From IMG/VR virus record IMGVR_UViG_2778261527_000011: a DNA stretch of 4,749 nucleotides; one strand, given 5' to 3'. Under the pieces are notes generated by a model. The model did not search any database and was not told where the DNA came from. It saw only the letters and a program-made list of their open reading frames with translations. The stretch's first letter is position 1, and every line of letters starts with the position of its first letter. This DNA comes from a virus (taxonomy: Duplodnaviria > Heunggongvirae > Uroviricota > Caudoviricetes). Both the position numbers and the translations under genes were made by a program. Positions 1 through 4,055 of the stretch are shown here, piece by piece.

Positions 1-1164
1 TTACGCCTTCTTTATATCCTCCATAATTCCACAGTGGGACATATTTGGGACATTATCACCAAAAATGTCGTCTATTTTCCTTGCATGCTCTGTCAAATGA
101 TTAGGCGCAAGGTGAGCATACCTACGAACCATTTCTATGGACTCCCATCCGCCCATTTCCTGAAGCACAGATAATGGGACGCCTGACTGGATCAGCCAGC
201 TTGCCCAGGTGTGTCTGAGGTCATGGAAACGGAAATCTTCAATTCCTGCACGACGACAAGCTGATAGCCATGATGTCTTGCTGTCGATGCGCATCTTCCT
301 GACCGCAGGCGTTGATGTTCCATCTGCTCGCTTAGCCGCCTTGGTATGTACAAACACCCATTTGTGATGCTTGCCTATTTGATCACGCAACACTTTACAG
401 GCGGTATCGTTCAGCGCCACACCAATGGCGCGGTTTGATTTGCTCTCTTCTGGATTCACCCAGGCAACTCGTCGCTGCATGTCGATTTGTTGCCATTCCA
501 GATTTATGATGTTCGACTTTCTCAGACCAGTTGCCAGCGCAAACTTGACGACAGATTTCAGTGGTTCGGGGCACTCATCAATAAGGCGTTTTGCTTCCTC
601 CTTTTCCAGCCATCTGACTCGCTTGTTTCTGACCGCTGGTATCTTGATGACAGGCGCTTTTTCCAGCCACTTCCAGTCGCGTTCTGCAGCACGGAGAATG
701 GCCTTTATCATGGCAAGATGCTTTGCCTTTGTCTGAGTTGATACTGGCTTTGGTTCATAAACAGGCGGTTCTTTACCTTTCCTGATGGCGGCCTGAACTT
801 TCTGTTTCCATATTTCTTTCGTCTTTCTGTTATGCATTCTGCTTACAGCAGAGTAAATCTTTGCCTCCGAGATATCTTTAAGCCTTATACCCTCAAAATG
901 TTCAAGCCAGAACTCAATCCGGCTTTTATCTGAATCGAGAGATTTTTTATCAGCTTTTTCCTCAAGCCATCTTAGGCAGGCCTCTTCAAAAGTGACATCA
1001 GGTAAATCCCCTAGCTTTTCTACTCGCCAGAGTTCTGCTTTTCGCTTGTCGTGCAACTCCTGAGCTTGCCGCTTGTCCTTTGTGCCAAGAGATTCCTTAA
1101 TTCGTTTCCCGCCCGGGAGCGAATACGAGGCATACCATATTTCATTTCTGCGGAAGAGTGACAT
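1..1164 (-). CDS. int: Tyrosine site-specific integrase, lambda/P22 family (387 aa, complete; stop at window positions 1-3)
   Basis: Full ORF from the six-frame track. Translation carries the tyrosine recombinase catalytic signature in the C-terminal half (ATGLRKSN...[13 protein letters not shown]...MVRRYAHL, i.e. R / H-x-x-R / Y). From memory the N-terminus ([37 protein letters not shown]) closely resembles P22-type Int; not verified by search. SD-like GAGGAAA lies 4-5 nt upstream of the ATG at 1162-1164. Confidence 0.95.
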
Positions 1165-1403
1165 TTTCTTTCCTCTGTTATGCCATCACCCGCGCTCACC
1201 TGGACAGTATGCAGCGGAGACTGAAGCGCCGCAATGCAAGCTTGCCGTGTTGTGAGGTAAGGAGATTTTGGCTTGGTTGGATCTTTACGTGTTGCCTGTA
1301 GGCGGCCTGTGCGTATCCAGTTAATGGCAGTCGGTCTGGATATTTTGAGAAAATGACAGGCCTCATCGAGTGTGAGGCTGTAAGCACACTGACGGCACGC
1401 ATA
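1020..1403 (-). pseudogene. xis: Excisionase-like (winged-helix / HTH_17-type) reading frame with no in-frame start codon; overlaps the int 5' end by about 140 bp
   Basis: Manual translation of the minus strand in the frame offset from ORF 1196..1663 gives ...[54 protein letters not shown]..., matching the excisionase/AlpA-type HTH pattern (compare lambda Xis N-terminus MYLTLQEW...). The frame is open from a TAA at 1404-1406 to a TAG at 1020-1022, but contains no ATG/GTG/TTG before the HTH. The nearest ATG (1400-1402) is in the frame of the upstream ORF. Confidence 0.5.
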
Positions 1404-1663
1404 TTATCAGCATCGATAAAGCAGCGGGTGCCTTCATCTGCAAGATCTTTAGAATAACGGGTAAAGTCATCGATGCTGGCAGTGGAAAGCGCACCACGGA
1501 AACGGAAGCGATTTAAATTAAATTTTTCCAGATCATGAATGCAGAAATTCTCAGGCAATGCTACAGCATCGGCACCAATCTTACTGATAATTTCATTAAC
1601 ACCCTGAGCAGAAATAAGGGCATGGATTTGATTAATTGCGGTTGCGTCTAAGTTCTGAGACAT
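1196..1663 (-). CDS. Hypothetical prophage protein; only the N-terminal ~87 codons (about 1403..1663) look like genuine coding sequence, the rest of the ORF is the wrong-frame reading of the xis-like region
   Basis: Track ORF. ATG at 1661-1663 preceded by GAGGA with 6-nt spacing. The first ~87 aa ([88 protein letters not shown]) look like a folded protein; the remainder is low-plausibility sequence, while the alternative frame over the same DNA encodes a recognisable HTH. Family not assigned. Confidence 0.5.
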
Positions 1664-1728
1664 AATAAGTCCTCACTATATAAAGATATTCAGTGATGAG
1701 ATAAATAATCAGTTAATTAAAAACGATA

Positions 1729-2091
1729 TTAACGACCTGCTGCGCGGAGTTTTCCGTCAGGTTCACCGGCAAGAGTCAGCAACTGTCCCTGGTCTTCCTG
1801 CAGAATAGTCAGGCGACCACCGCGATTGACATACATCGGCGTTTCGGTGGTGTCTTCTTCGGAAATTTTCCCGCGGTTAGTCGGGCGAACATATGAGAGT
1901 TTGTGTTTGATTTTCACTCGGTTCTCATCAAACGGTTCGATTTCTAGGTTGAGAGAGACCTTACCTTTGGTTTTCGTGTTCATCACACCGGAAGCGACTT
2001 CACTGAGAACTGCGCCGATTTTGGTTTCAAATACGCCGCCGTCCAGCTCCCCGATAAATGCCTGCACATCAGTACTGCGTTCGCTAGCCAT
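1729..2091 (-). CDS. Hypothetical small prophage protein (120 aa)
   Basis: Track ORF 1729..2409, trimmed to the ATG at 2089-2091 (MASERSTDVQAFIGELDGG...), which is preceded by a strong SD GAGGAG (2099-2104) with 7-nt spacing. The upstream extension to 2409 translates to low-complexity R/P/G-rich sequence from GC-rich DNA. No family recognised from sequence alone. Confidence 0.7.
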   Translation of the reverse strand: MASERSTDVQAFIGELDGGVFETKIGAVLSEVASGVMNTKTKGKVSLNLEIEPFDENRVKIKHKLSYVRPTNRGKISEEDTTETPMYVNRGGRLTILQEDQGQLLTLAGEPDGKLRAAGR

Positions 2092-2135
2092 TTTGCTGCT
2101 CCTCATCATATCGACCCTGCAAGGTCGGTTAGTTT

Positions 2136-2330
2136 CTCCACAAAACAGAGAAGAACACCTGCGGTGACTGCCGCCCGGATGGATTGGGTTATGAGCCCGT
2201 CGTCCGGTGATGCTCTTCTCTGTTTTGTAAAAAGGACGGTACCAGCCGGAAGCAAGGGTACAAGCTGGTACCGCCAGGACTACACACAGCATAAAGTTGT
2301 GGTGCCGGGTGCCTCCCGGTGCCTGGCGAA
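2136..2330. other. GC-rich non-coding spacer dense in dyad symmetries; candidate structured RNA or regulatory DNA
   Basis: Perfect 15-bp inverted repeat ACAAAACAGAGAAGA (2140-2154) / TCTTCTCTGTTTTGT (2214-2228) enclosing 59 nt that contain further small stems (GCGG/CCGC 2161-2174; CCGGA/TCCGG 2175-2207). Perfect 10-bp hairpin CGGTACCAGC (2237-2246) / GCTGGTACCG (2264-2273) with a 17-nt loop. CCGGG-tgcct-CCCGG (2305-2319), extendable to 9 bp with G-U pairs in RNA. All six-frame ORFs here overlap each other in several frames and translate to junk. Confidence 0.3.
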
Positions 2331-2500
2331 GGTTGCACACCAGGCGGGTGGGTATCCACAGAAGGTCGACTGTCAGCCTCAACCTTAACCCGCGTGCGCT
2401 GAGCCGCATTCACCACAACGCTAAGGATTCTCTCTGGTTGAAAATACTTAGCTGTTATGTGCCTGCTTTTAGCCACATCAGGCGAGGTGGACCTAGTTAT

Positions 2501-2546
2501 TCCCCAACAACAAGGATTCGGTTAATCTGGATATCCCCAACAACAA
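2501..2546. repeat. 13-bp perfect direct repeat TCCCCAACAACAA, two copies 33 bp apart start-to-start
   Basis: Copies at 2501-2513 and 2534-2546, immediately upstream of the candidate start of the rightward ORF (2561). An inverted partial copy of the AACAACAA core lies at 3203-3210 on the other side of that ORF. Confidence 0.6.
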
Positions 2547-2560
2547 TAAGAGTATTCAAT

Positions 2561-3076
2561 GTGATCGCTGAATTAACGGCAGCAATGACGGCTATTCGTG
2601 AAACAGCCCAGATTGCAAAACTAATGAACGAGGCAAAAACTCAAGCTGAAGTAAATGCGGCTATTGGTGAGCTGAACTCAAAGCTTGCGTCTATTCAGCG
2701 CGAATGCGTGTCTCTCTTTGAACTGGTGGGCTCTTATCAAGAAATAAATGCTTCTCTCAAAGCTAAAATTGCAGAATTCGAAAACTTTGAGGCTCAGACG
2801 GAAGGCTATATCCTTAACCAACTTGAGTCGGGTACTTTTGTATACTCGAAGGAGGTAATCGTGAACGGTGGCAGCATAACCATGCATCTTTGCCCAAAAT
2901 GTTTTGGACAAAAGATAGTATCGATACTTCAACCATTCCCGGTTAGCGAAGATGAGCTTTTTCATAAAAGCAGGTGCCTCCACTGTGAAAATAAGTTTCT
3001 GATGAATAAAAATCCGGATTACGTATCGCCTCCATCCATTGAGGAGTTGTCCAGAAAACTTAACGGCAATCTGTAG
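2561..3076 (+). CDS. Hypothetical protein with N-terminal coiled-coil and C-terminal C4 zinc ribbon (CPKC-x24-CLHC); moron-like accessory gene, function unknown
   Basis: Long plus-strand ORF (track 2297..3076) whose 5' extension is GC-rich junk. Plausible starts are GTG 2561 (AAGAG 8 nt upstream) or ATG 2585 (no clear SD). The N-terminal ~70 aa are heptad-like (AQIAKLMNEAKTQAEVNAAIGELNSKLASIQRE...LKAKIAEFENFEAQ); the C-terminus carries two CxxC pairs. Visibly more A+T-rich than the flanking spacer. Followed by an intrinsic terminator. The antisense ORF 2678..2983 has artefact-like composition. Confidence 0.6.
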   Translation: MIAELTAAMTAIRETAQIAKLMNEAKTQAEVNAAIGELNSKLASIQRECVSLFELVGSYQEINASLKAKIAEFENFEAQTEGYILNQLESGTFVYSKEVIVNGGSITMHLCPKCFGQKIVSILQPFPVSEDELFHKSRCLHCENKFLMNKNPDYVSPPSIEELSRKLNGNL

Positions 3077-3115
3077 ATTACTACTGTTGTGGATATCCAG
3101 ATTGTTAAAGAGCTA

Positions 3116-3140
3116 AGCGTCCTGTAGGGCGCTTTTTTGT
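3116..3140 (+). terminator. Rho-independent terminator for the rightward zinc-ribbon ORF
   Basis: Stem AGCGTCC (3116-3122) / GGGCGCT (3127-3133), 7 bp including one G-U pair, loop TGTA, followed by T-run 3134-3138. Begins 40 nt after the TAG at 3074-3076. The reverse strand lacks a T-tract, so it is unidirectional. Confidence 0.6.
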
Positions 3141-3207
3141 TGCTAACGAATCATCCTGGACTTCATATGCCCCAGGCGGCTACTTCGTGGGCGTCCTGCC
3201 TGTTTGT

Positions 3208-3251
3208 TGTTTCTCTTGGGTACATTATGTATCTCATAGGTACATTGTCAA
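3208..3251 (-). promoter_or_regulatory. Candidate pL-like leftward promoter with overlapping operator-like sites (OL analogue)
   Basis: Minus strand reads TTGACA (plus 3246-3251, consensus -35), then a 16-bp spacer, then CATAAT (plus 3224-3229); alternatively a 17-bp spacer with ATAATG. Operator-like imperfect palindromes TGTATC-tcata-GGTACA (3228-3244) and TGTTTC-tcttg-GGTACA (3208-3224) overlap the spacer/-10/start region. Position (just past the repressor-gene terminator) matches lambda OL/pL topology. Confidence 0.45.
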
Positions 3252-3253
3252 GT

Positions 3254-3278
3254 ATAAAAAAACCTGCCGAAGCAGGTT
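3254..3278 (-). terminator. Rho-independent terminator of the repressor gene
   Basis: On the minus strand: stem AACCTGC / GCAGGTT (7 bp perfect) with a UUCG tetraloop, followed by a run of T (plus-strand A-run 3256-3262). Lies 13 nt downstream of the repressor stop at 3291-3293. Confidence 0.75.
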
Positions 3279-3290
3279 CATAAACATTGA

Positions 3291-3965
3291 TTAGGCTTTG
3301 ATTTTGTATCTTCTTGGTTTTCCTGAGAAAATCACAGTTCCAATTATAGAGCAATTACCGTTGATCTTAATGTAAGGCTCAGGCCAGTTTGGGTTTAACG
3401 CTTTGAGATAACGCTGTGTCCCATCTTCTATCAACCTTTTGAAGGTGGTTTCACCTGTATCGTGCATCAATGCAATAACGTCGTCACCGTGGCAGGCAGG
3501 TACTTCAGGATCGACAAAAATCATGTCTCCCGGGCGGTACTCATCAATCATTGAATCACCTATCACCCGCAAGATATAAGTCATTTCCCCACAGGGTACA
3601 GGGCAGGGATACGTTTCTGCTGTGCTCAAATCAACCTCAGAATATCCAACTTCTTTCCATGCTCCGGCCTGTACCCATGATATGACAGGGACTAATGTGA
3701 TTTGTTTATTAGTGATTGAAACATCAGGTTTTTTTGTGATGTTCGTTGTCTGGTGTTCTTGATCGAGCCATCCGACAGGCAGGTCGAAACATTTTTCGAT
3801 GTGTCGTGCCATGCTGTCACCGATATTTTTAGTAGCACCATCTCCCATAAACCTGCTGGTCTGGGTTGGCTCGCGATCAATCATAGTGGCAAAGGAAGAA
3901 TTCCCTCCAACACCATCTCTCAGTTTTCTGGCGTTAGACCGCCGGATGTCATGGATTGTTTTCAT
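3291..3965 (-). CDS. Phage CI-type repressor with C-terminal LexA-like S24 autopeptidase domain (224 aa)
   Basis: Track ORF. The C-terminal domain has the S24 serine-lysine dyad context (RVIGDSMIDEY ... TTFKRL) and an Ala-Gly candidate cleavage site (SWVQAGAWK). Sits divergent from a cro-like gene with palindromic operators between them. No SD upstream of the ATG; the predicted pRM start coincides with the ATG (leaderless, as for lambda cI). Confidence 0.9.
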   Translation of the reverse strand: MKTIHDIRRSNARKLRDGVGGNSSFATMIDREPTQTSRFMGDGATKNIGDSMARHIEKCFDLPVGWLDQEHQTTNITKKPDVSITNKQITLVPVISWVQAGAWKEVGYSEVDLSTAETYPCPVPCGEMTYILRVIGDSMIDEYRPGDMIFVDPEVPACHGDDVIALMHDTGETTFKRLIEDGTQRYLKALNPNWPEPYIKINGNCSIIGTVIFSGKPRRYKIKA

Positions 3966-4055
3966 AACGAAATTAAAACCCCTGTACCGTTAAGGTACAA
4001 GTATCTTGAAGGTTCATTTCAATCATGTAATATGTACACCGGAGGTACATATTGT
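3966..4055. promoter_or_regulatory. Immunity switch region: divergent pRM-like (leftward) and pR-like (rightward) promoters with 17-bp palindromic operators, consensus TGTACC-N5-GGTACA
   Basis: Operators: perfect palindrome TGTACCGTTAAGGTACA (3983-3999); TGTACAccggaGGTACA (4033-4049, 11/12); weaker AGTATCttgaaGGTTCA (4000-4016). pR-like: -35 TTGAAG (4006-4011), 16-bp spacer, -10 TAATAT (4028-4033), then SD GGAGG (4041-4045) and the cro ATG at 4056. pRM-like on the minus strand: -35 TTGTAC (plus 3995-4000), 17-bp spacer, -10 TTTAAT (plus 3972-3977), predicted start at or near the repressor ATG (3965). Confidence 0.55.

Follow-up and report, generated by a model that had tools for sequence, protein, structure and literature searches.

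Candidate operators in an e14/SfV-type prophage

Divergent repressor and cro genes flank several copies of one 17-bp dyad in the viral DNA analyzed here (the window, that is, the whole stretch of 4,749 nucleotides), which raises the question of which protein would read these palindromes and by what logic they would govern the early promoters. An e14/SfV-type prophage was recognized in the window, which makes up its int-to-cII arm, cI being ymfK and cro being ymfT. Its DNA is 98-99% identical to that of SfV and SfIV, its cI is 100% identical to SfIV cI, and in K-12 e14 the OR and OL regions hold all five sites with unchanged half-sites, together with the same pRM hexamers and spacing. Its repressor, Cro, and control regions hardly differ from their counterparts in SfV, SfIV, and K-12 e14, which places the prophage in the e14/SfV (YmfK/YmfT) immunity group. 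Compared with these three elements, its left arm differs and an extra rightward ORF is present (2561-3076), while comparison with phage PhiR29_1 revealed a 1,872-bp deletion. PADLOC assigned no defence family to the two unknown ORFs of the window. The OR region itself is already known, as the SfV GenBank record labels exactly this stretch (26377-26445, corresponding to window 3982-4050) "putative operator region"; the OL sites are not annotated in that record. An analysis of e14 by Mehta, Casjens and Krishnaswamy (2004) is also said to have predicted, from the analogy with SfV, where the repressor and Cro would bind.

We scanned the window for TGTACCNNNNNGGTACA, allowing up to three mismatches, and compared the outcome with 200 shuffles. 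Six matches were obtained against 1.12 expected, a number reached or exceeded in a single shuffle, and the hexamer GGTACA was present in eight copies against 1.21 expected, a count attained by none of the 200 shuffles. Five of the six 17-mers are confined to two non-coding control stretches with a combined length of ~150 bp, or 3% of the window (Table 1), a clustering whose chance we estimate at ~2e-7 with a binomial calculation of our own. Three of these occupy the 90-bp gap between the divergent cI and cro genes. The preliminary description of this DNA had reported a perfect and a near-perfect palindrome in this gap; the scan returned both, and every coordinate given there proved exact. The remaining match (3584-3600, two mismatches) lies inside cI and was taken as a chance occurrence; it keeps as few as two mismatches only in near-identical E. 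coli copies and falls in the codons of a conserved PCPVPCG motif.

Table 1. Candidate operators, promoters, and genes of the two control regions (window coordinates)
Feature	Position	Strand	Sequence	Details
OL2, weak candidate operator	3208..3224	.	TGTTTCtcttgGGTACA	2 mismatches; covers last base of pL -10 and predicted pL start
pL, leftward early promoter	3224..3251	-		TTGACA (3251-3246), 16-nt spacer, CATAAT (3229-3224); 11/12 match in promoter scan
OL1, strong candidate operator	3228..3244	.	TGTATCtcataGGTACA	1 mismatch; fills gap between pL -35 and -10
cI intrinsic terminator	3260..3279	-		Terminator scan; between cI and pL; homologous terminator annotated in SfV GenBank record
cI repressor, YmfK type, 224 aa	3291..3965	-		ORF; SfIV cI identity; Peptidase_S24
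pRM	3972..4000	-		TTGTAC (4000-3995), 17-nt spacer, TTTAAT (3977-3972); +1 at A of cI ATG (3965)
OR-P, perfect candidate operator	3983..3999	.	TGTACCgttaaGGTACA	0 mismatches; centred at -26 of pRM
OR-M, weak candidate operator	4000..4016	.	AGTATCttgaaGGTTCA	3 mismatches; adjoins OR-P; centred at -43 of pRM; contains pR -35
pR, predicted rightward early promoter	4006..4033	+		TTGAAG (4006-4011), 16-nt spacer, TAATAT (4028-4033); read from sequence
OR-D, strong candidate operator	4033..4049	.	TGTACAccggaGGTACA	1 mismatch; spans pR -10 end, predicted pR start, and cro Shine-Dalgarno sequence (GGAGG, 4041-4045)
cro, YmfT/CroE type, 66 aa	4056..4256	+		ORF; helix-turn-helix; divergent from cI

Position of the sites relative to pL, pRM, and pR

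The same dyad recurs at the leftward promoter, which was found by promoter scan and which carries two imperfect copies, as had been proposed, one in its spacer and the other on its predicted start. The -35 core of pL (TTGAC) is invariant in every anchorable locus, its CATAAT -10 element is near-invariant, and the two-site arrangement is conserved in relatives. OL1 is a perfect palindrome in most of them, with a variable 5-bp spacer (0.1-0.7 bits), and OL2 conserves its promoter-side half TGTACC, its distal half (GAAACA-like) being weak or lost in several relatives. No third OL site was seen in the site scan, leaving two sites at a distance of 20 bp. At about 3208-3211 there is a mosaic junction with heteroimmune phages. 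Homology of the pL leader block to HK022 putL was considered and not supported, its single-sequence fold being not significant (z = -0.28) and its alignment with HK022 having only CAGGAUGA in common.

On the repressor side, the K-12 ymfK transcription start mapped by published dRNA-seq is the A of the ATG (leader length 0), giving a leaderless mRNA, and pRM is active in K-12 lysogens. Since this start lies on the ATG, OR-P covers the pRM -35 element and spacer (-18 to -34), so that the operator nearest cI overlaps a leaderless pRM and, by its position, makes an OR3 analogue that would serve in autorepression. A -10-like element 6-8 nt before the repressor ATG, without a Shine-Dalgarno sequence, is likewise conserved among relatives. 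A terminator scan of the same stretch returned a minus-strand stem-loop (4001-3981) followed by GGTTTTAATT, and OR-P could accordingly be read as an RNA hairpin or intrinsic terminator before cI rather than a protein site. We regard this as highly improbable, given that the arms keep their sequence among relatives with no compensatory change, that the T-rich tail is not conserved, that the same half-sites occur at four other places without such a tail, and that the cI transcript begins downstream of the palindrome.

Toward cro, the predicted pR scores 8/12, under the threshold of the promoter scanner. Its -35 CTTG is invariant among relatives, and a -10-like hexamer is kept, spelled TAATAT or CATAAT. 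OR-D, which had been proposed to overlap pR, indeed lies over its predicted start; it shows 0-2 mismatches in 33 of 33 relatives, and its spacer is conserved because the cro Shine-Dalgarno sequence lies there.

Conservation of the sites and specificity classes

We then considered 31 genomic loci and three phages, which yielded 33 non-redundant OR regions from hosts ranging from Escherichia to Halomonas and Pseudomonas. Protein homologues had been searched with full-length cI as the query, the N-terminal domain alone giving fragments only. In most of the 33 relatives, the OR sites are located at -34, -51, and -84 from the repressor ATG, and in all of them within 4 bp of these offsets, OR-M being separated from OR-P by 16-17 bp and from OR-D by 33-35 bp. 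The half-sites are nearly invariant, and the 5-bp spacer of the promoter-proximal OR site drifts freely. OR-P has no mismatch in 20 of the 33 relatives (half-sites 1.4-2.0 bits, spacer 0.2-0.5 bits). Across 30 distinct loci, 117 site matches were counted in 6.6 kb of control regions versus seven in 88 kb elsewhere, a 224-fold enrichment. The motif scan of related immunity regions thus found the same sites, in the same order and at the same offsets, in about 30 distinct prophages of many genera, in agreement with the earlier proposal that one operator family serves OR and OL in a lambda-type switch.

The sites also follow the DNA-binding part of the repressor. In Pseudomonas phage BR133a, the N-terminal domain is 58-59% identical to that of the window's cI and the C-terminal part is different; the same three-site layout with TGTACC half-sites is present. 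Where the recognition helix is different, so are the half-sites: such relatives have 6-N5-6 or 6-N4-6 palindromes built from ATTACC (loci L050 and L006), TTAACC (L007), or TTATC (L048 and L049). In L050, palindromic sites are found at -86 and -35, with a half-matching stretch at about -52.

The middle OR site

The preliminary description had suggested that the third OR site might be weaker or non-functional, and these two suggestions fared differently. OR-M is indeed weak, with three mismatches in the window and two to five in relatives, and its half adjoining OR-P is poorly conserved. Moreover, the four columns at its centre that never vary (CAAG) correspond to the pR -35 CTTG read on the other strand, and the promoter therefore accounts for part of its conservation. 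It could be argued from these features that OR holds only two repressor sites and that the intervening stretch is kept for the pR -35 element and promoter spacing, a reading that we consider unlikely without dismissing it. The cro-side half of OR-M lies in the pR spacer, which is normally free to vary, yet it is conserved as TGAACC or TGTACC at 1.1-2.0 bits, and it is a perfect TGTACC in the equivalent site of the Pseudomonas and Halomonas branch. Its offset from OR-P is fixed in 33 of 33 relatives. Furthermore, the OR-M position in L050, an ATTACC-class relative, reads ATTACCgcattGGTGCA, indicating that the half-site of the middle site follows the specificity class. Because its position and cro-side half are conserved and its half-site switches in L050, OR-M is probably a real low-affinity operator and not a dead site.

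Which protein would read the sites

The window's cI combines a helix-turn-helix domain with an S24 self-cleavage domain. Its N-terminal DNA-binding domain is modeled by AlphaFold as four helices, the recognition helix lying near residues 33-40 (PTQTSRFM); a Pfam search matched no family to this domain. Residues 93-212 correspond to Pfam Peptidase_S24, and PDB searches matched the C-terminal domain to lambda cI, LexA, and UmuD. The autoprotease residues (Ala100-Gly101, Ser138, and Lys176) are conserved in 43 homologues (A100 in at least 90%). We also considered an antirepressor-controlled repressor of the Salmonella phage SPC32H/Gifsy type, whose Rep (PDB 5D50) shows weak N-terminal similarity to cI (phmmer E = 0.0018 over residues 1-76; Foldseek E = 2.5e-4). 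However, SPC32H Rep lacks an S24 domain and owes its inactivation to an antirepressor (PDB title "Rep-Ant complex"), whereas the window's cI carries a complete LexA-like cleavage module in its C-terminal domain, and the likeness to 5D50, besides being weak, is limited to the N-terminal part; this type was therefore rejected.

The comparative data leave a second phage protein to be weighed. In nearly all relatives, those of Pseudomonas and Halomonas among them, the repressor has a Cro homologue as its companion, and a YmfT homologue stands beside every TGTACC-type locus with a callable divergent ORF, so that conservation of the sites cannot be assigned to one of the two proteins. In addition, lambda Cro binds best at the site over pRM, which is where the perfect palindrome of the window is found. 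We nevertheless give very little credence to the reading in which the palindromes are mainly Cro sites and the repressor recognizes something else. The two control regions hold no other repeated element, the OL sites within the pL spacer are placed as a maintenance repressor would need them, and the half-sites change with the recognition helix of the repressor (L006, L007, and L047 to L050, in a comparison confined to the repressors). To our knowledge, repressor and Cro share operators in all lambdoid switches studied.

Binding by a host protein, for instance LexA or CRP, would be compatible with the SOS responsiveness of the element, and the outer bases TGTA...TACA loosely resemble the boxes of both proteins. 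The LexA box reads CTGT-N8-ACAG (16-bp core) and the CRP box TGTGA-N6-TCACA, and TGTACC-N5-GGTACA fits neither in spacing or bases; identity with the LexA (SOS) box was thus rejected. Moreover, the motif follows the phage-encoded N-terminal domain across hosts as distant as Pseudomonas and Halomonas, and we attach almost no weight to a host factor. The literature open to searching yielded no binding study of the SfV or e14 operators, and in particular no footprinting, EMSA, or ChIP data on YmfK or SfV cI. Taken together, these comparisons lead us to estimate at roughly 85% the probability that the e14/SfV-type prophage repressor (YmfK family) uses the five 17-bp sites as its operators, with Cro (YmfT) probably using them too.

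Comparison with the lambda switch

The locus is almost certainly an ordinary lambda-type prophage switch of the e14/SfV immunity type. As in lambda, cI and cro are divergent, 17-bp dyads are reused at OR and OL, the repressor joins a helix-turn-helix to an S24 domain, and the pRM cI mRNA is leaderless. One operator lies over pRM, one or two lie over pR, and one is found near -42 of pRM (-43 here; -42 for lambda OR2), as judged from OR coordinates taken from the lambda record. In contrast with lambda, the half-site sequence is different, the N-terminal domain of cI has no Pfam match, only two OL sites are seen, and the N gene is absent. The lambdoid pattern, in which OR and OL each comprise three operators whose centres lie 22-24 bp apart across short AT-rich spacers, a spacing that permits pairwise cooperativity, is not found. 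The two sites nearest cI adjoin with no spacer, as previously noted, at 17 bp centre to centre instead of 23 bp in lambda, and the third OR site is 33 bp away instead of 24 bp. With 17 bp between them (~1.6 helical turns), OR-P and OR-M do not share one face of the helix as the cooperative pairs of lambda do. It is the site over pRM, and not the pR-nearest site, that matches the consensus best; if match reflects affinity for the repressor, cI would silence itself before pR, unlike in lambda, yet pRM is active in K-12 lysogens.

A model of the switch and its significance

In our preferred reading, in which the repressor recognizes all five sites, a repressor dimer would contact both TGTACC half-sites, each through the helix-turn-helix of one N-terminal domain, and leave the five bases between them unread. 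At OL, one dimer would sit between the pL -35 and -10 elements, and a second, weaker one would occupy the pL start, 20 bp away. At OR, occupancy of OR-D over the pR start and of the weak OR-M over the pR -35 would turn off cro and the early right operon. Being placed at -43 of the leaderless pRM, much as OR2 is in lambda, OR-M could also stimulate cI transcription, and OR-P on the pRM -35 and spacer would limit cI synthesis by OR3-like autorepression. Following DNA damage, activated RecA would promote self-cleavage at Ala100-Gly101 by the Ser138/Lys176 dyad and thereby release both promoters. The left and right early genes of e14 have been reported as one co-regulated unit, the "YmfT iModulon", together with the SOS genes sulA and recN, a co-induction of both arms already established in the literature.

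A more specific interpretation, which we hold only tentatively and consider less likely to be right than wrong, is that the locus represents a lambda OR in compressed form. Autorepression would then fall to the operator with the strongest consensus, and the adjoining, deliberately weak site would double as the pR -35 element and as a place (-43) from which pRM might be activated. The YmfK-like N-terminal family would, in addition, have a simple and readable 6-N5-6 code. If so, the switch logic would be unlike that of lambda, with tight negative autoregulation coming first, and the YmfK-like code would consist of a constant ACC/GGT (or ATC/GAT) core with variable outer bases (TGT, ATT, or TTA), which would allow many orthogonal immunity specificities.

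These operators leave the general understanding of such switches unchanged. Of 5426 complete E. coli genomes, 1323 (about a quarter) were found to hold the e14/SfV module, and its carriers include the K-12 prophage e14, the Shigella serotype-converting phages, and the Stx2c- and Cdt-converting phages. Given this wide distribution, which extends to toxin phages, a defined operator consensus is useful. It could serve to predict superinfection immunity groups and to explain how the induction of toxin phages, and that of the e14 division inhibitor YmfM, is linked to the SOS response, and it would provide a concrete predicted regulon for YmfK, an unstudied K-12 transcription factor.

Identity and gene content of the module

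The control region of the window is the e14/SfV immunity module. Phages PhiR29, SfIV and SfV are 98-99.8% identical to the window over the immunity region, and Stx2c-converting phages, cdtI and Ayreon are ~95% identical; the 861-bp control module was found in 1323 of 5426 complete E. coli genomes, where ymfK and ymfT are the NCBI names for these repressor and Cro genes. The K-12 cryptic prophage e14 carries the same five sites, with half-sites identical to those of the window. Sites in e14 for both the repressor and Cro were reportedly predicted in 2004 by analogy with SfV. The SfV GenBank record labels 26377-26445 (window 3982-4050) as 'putative operator region', and our literature search found no binding experiment on these sites.

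Features of the window, with positions, strand and basis
Feature	Position	Strand	Basis
Integrase	1-1164	minus	ORF list, family scans
ORF, N-terminal part matching a DUF2303/YfdQ fragment	1196-1663	minus	ORF list, family scans
YfdP-like ORF	1729-2091	minus	ORF list, family scans
ORF of unknown function	2561-3076	plus (rightward)	ORF list, family scans
OL2 (weak)	3208-3224		motif scan
OL1	3228-3244		motif scan
pL, TTGACA-16-CATAAT	3251-3224		promoter scan
Repressor (cI), 224 aa, Peptidase_S24 domain	3291-3965	minus	ORF list, family scans
cI-internal near-match	3584-3600		motif scan
OR-P (perfect, promoter-proximal)	3983-3999		motif scan
OR-M (weak, middle)	4000-4016		motif scan
OR-D (third)	4033-4049		motif scan
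Cro, YdaS/HTH_3-like, 66 aa	4056-4256	plus	ORF list, family scans
CII-like (Phage_CP76) gene	start 4288		ORF list, family scans

Predicted operator sites and promoters

The preliminary description had proposed TGTACC-N5-GGTACA operators at both control regions. A scan of the window with TGTACCNNNNNGGTACA gave six matches (1.1 expected by chance), recovering exactly the five proposed sites plus one inside cI, and the hexamer GGTACA was counted 8 times where 1.2 were expected. The match inside cI, TTTCCCCACAGGGTACA, has 2 mismatches, a level reached only in near-identical E. coli copies, coincides with codons for the conserved PCPVPCG motif and is probably due to chance. Two sites indeed overlap the predicted pL: OL1 fills its spacer, and OL2 shares one base with the -10, its last, and overlies the expected start.

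In published differential RNA-seq of K-12, ymfK is one of five E. coli mRNAs that are leaderless: its transcription starts on the start codon's first base, which gives a leader length of 0. Because promoter hexamers, operator sites and spacing are the same in K-12, we place the window pRM start at 3965. The pRM -10 is TTTAAT (3977-3972), and its -35, TTGTAC (4000-3995), is formed where the two abutting sites join. OR-P covers -18 to -34 of pRM, where a putative operator must, by analogy with lambda OR3, exclude RNA polymerase. OR-M spans -35 to -51 (centre -43) and contains the predicted pR -35 (TTGAAG, 4006-4011), and OR-D starts at the final base of the predicted pR -10 (TAATAT, 4028-4033) and extends over the start and the cro Shine-Dalgarno. 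The 20-bp and 33-bp site pairs lie near integral helical turns, whereas the 17-bp pair does not. The best consensus match sits over pRM, a promoter that nevertheless fires in lysogens; consensus match is therefore not directly readable as repressor affinity. We infer repressor binding, an affinity order, cooperativity, activation from -43 and a role for Cro.

The module works like that of lambda but does not reproduce its layout in detail. Lambda OR2 lies at -34 to -50 (centre -42) relative to the cI start at 37940, close to the -43 of OR-M. In contrast to lambda, the sites are spaced differently, there are only two of them at OL, and the repressor has a different N-terminal domain, to which SPC32H Rep bears only a weak resemblance.

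Conservation across relatives

The phages Hafnia yong2 and Edwardsiella EPP-1, whose repressors are 74-79% identical, keep all five sites in unchanged order, with unchanged half-sites and different 5-bp spacers (gttaa, gcgtt and aaatt in the perfect site). Pseudomonas phage BR133a, with a repressor 58-59% identical in the N-terminal domain and different in the C-terminal part, has TGTACCtcctgGGTACA, TGTACCgtcaaGGTTCT and TGTACAtttctGGTACA in its divergent intergenic region, in the same three-site layout, abutting pair included. The abutting arrangement of OR-M is thus shared, and the suggestion that this site may be non-functional is disfavoured by its conservation.

In a wider survey, one genome per species was scanned with an N-terminal-domain alignment, yielding 31 loci from Escherichia, Atlantibacter, Leclercia, Pantoea, Klebsiella, Serratia, Rahnella, Proteus, Morganella, Edwardsiella, Rosenbergiella, Salinicola, Halomonas, Pseudomonas and others. 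Relative to the repressor ATG, OR sites start at -34, -51 and -84 in most of 33 non-redundant regions and within 4 bp in all, with spacings of 16-17 and 33-35 bp. The promoter-proximal site carries 1.4-2.0 bits per position in its half-sites, 0.2-0.5 bits in the spacer and little in the flanks, a profile characteristic of dimeric DNA-binding proteins rather than RNA hairpins. Downstream (3') of the repressor gene, Enterobacterales share the order terminator, TTGACA, A, TGTACC-N5-GGTACA, TAA, TGTACC-N5-gaAACA. Across 30 distinct loci, 117 matches (at most 2 mismatches) fall in 6.6 kb of control regions against 7 in the other 88 kb, a 224-fold enrichment.

Repressor structure, specificity and induction

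The AlphaFold model of the repressor (43 homologues, mean pLDDT 81) has four N-terminal helices (residues 4-19, 22-28, 33-40 and 50-59), a linker and a lambda-cI/LexA/UmuD-like C-terminal domain; A100 (≥90%), G101, S138 and K176 are conserved among homologues. Wherever the helix-3 motif PTQxSR is kept, including in Salinivibrio (L052) and a metagenomic relative (L051), GTACC-type half-sites are kept. Homologues with other helices have different palindromes in a similar dyad layout (6-N5-6 or 6-N4-6): ASLVSR with ATTACC-N5-GGTAAT at -86 and -35 and ATTACCgcattGGTGCA at about -52 (L050), PSYVSR with ATTACCcacaGGTAAT (L006), AQVSS with TTAACCataaaGGTTAA (L007), and SYLSQVR with (A/T/G)TTATC-N5-GATAA(T/C) (L048, imperfect, and L049). 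Because half-sites co-vary with the recognition helix, the proposal that they define immunity specificity is supported. In nearly all TGTACC-type loci the repressor is accompanied by a Cro homologue, so comparative data cannot tell what each of the two proteins contributes.

In the 'YmfT iModulon', both arms of e14 (left intE, xisE, ymfH and ymfJ; right ymfT, ymfL, ymfM and ymfN) are co-induced with sulA and recN, a pattern consistent with a single SOS-cleavable repressor that controls pL and pR. For YmfK, the listed description is 'SOS-sensitive repressor'.

The left arm and the pL leader

A mosaic junction lies at about 3208-3211: phage Kati and others are 99% identical over window 1-3208 and then carry a different immunity region, and the block that the window has in common with heteroimmune phages ends at 3211. 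These ends locate the exchange boundary of the module in OL2, within its weak distal half; the degeneracy of that half-site may be explained by this.

Compared with inducible phage PhiR29_1, the window has a 1,872-bp deletion at 1381/1382 (window 1-1382 matches PhiR29_1 locus positions 1-1382; window 1381-4749 matches 3255-6623). With it go genes of the yfdT-like, EaE and HD-hydrolase types, and yfdQ/DUF2303 loses its 3' part, hence the chimeric ORF at 1196-1663; the early left operon of this prophage may be defective. An Rfam match to the gammaproteobacterial sRNA STnc100 (2226-2449 minus, full model length; 42.4 bits against a gathering score of 47, thus below it; E = 5.8e-07) falls in a gap with few ORFs (2100-2560) in the downstream part of the pL transcription unit. 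The rightward 171-aa ORF is convergent with pL and is followed by its own terminator (3115-3134); it belongs to phrog_1244 (no known function) and had no PADLOC match, and its product has two CxxC pairs and an N-terminal part that is coiled-coil-like. The ORF's position is like that of a lysogeny-expressed moron, and transcription from pL would run antisense through it.

Directly downstream of pL, a ~70-nt block (3143-3211 minus, RNA read leftward) is 80-97% identical in phages whose immunity regions are unrelated (SfII, ST64B, mEp237, mEp460, SPN3UB, ZF40, YeP1-3 and Klebsiella phages) and also lies between ymfK and ymfJ in K-12 e14. A near-invariant 22-nt core, AGGCAGGACGCCCACGAAGUAG, precedes a hairpin with compensatory changes (CCUGG/CCAGG, CCCGG/CCGGG, CUACC/GGUAG, CCGGU/ACCGG). 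All cells of the helix (100%) are paired, and both sides have changed in 5 of 7 pairs; the covariation score of 0.368 (0.125 in shuffles) was reached by 0 of 500 shuffles, and controls with slid partners scored at most 0.105. The block had no Rfam match at E up to 1 and no second copy in the stretches searched. It resembles the HK022 putL antitermination RNA in position, size and the absence of an N gene, but sequence similarity is minimal; we regard it as a candidate cis-acting leader or antitermination RNA.

The operator feature is real and ordinary, and the preliminary description read it correctly. To existing annotation, our analysis adds the two OL sites, a consensus for the whole family, the finding that the weak middle site is conserved, site placement relative to the mapped pRM, and the half-site variants of heteroimmune relatives. 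The most interesting observation here, outside the operator finding, is the conserved, co-varying pL-leader RNA.
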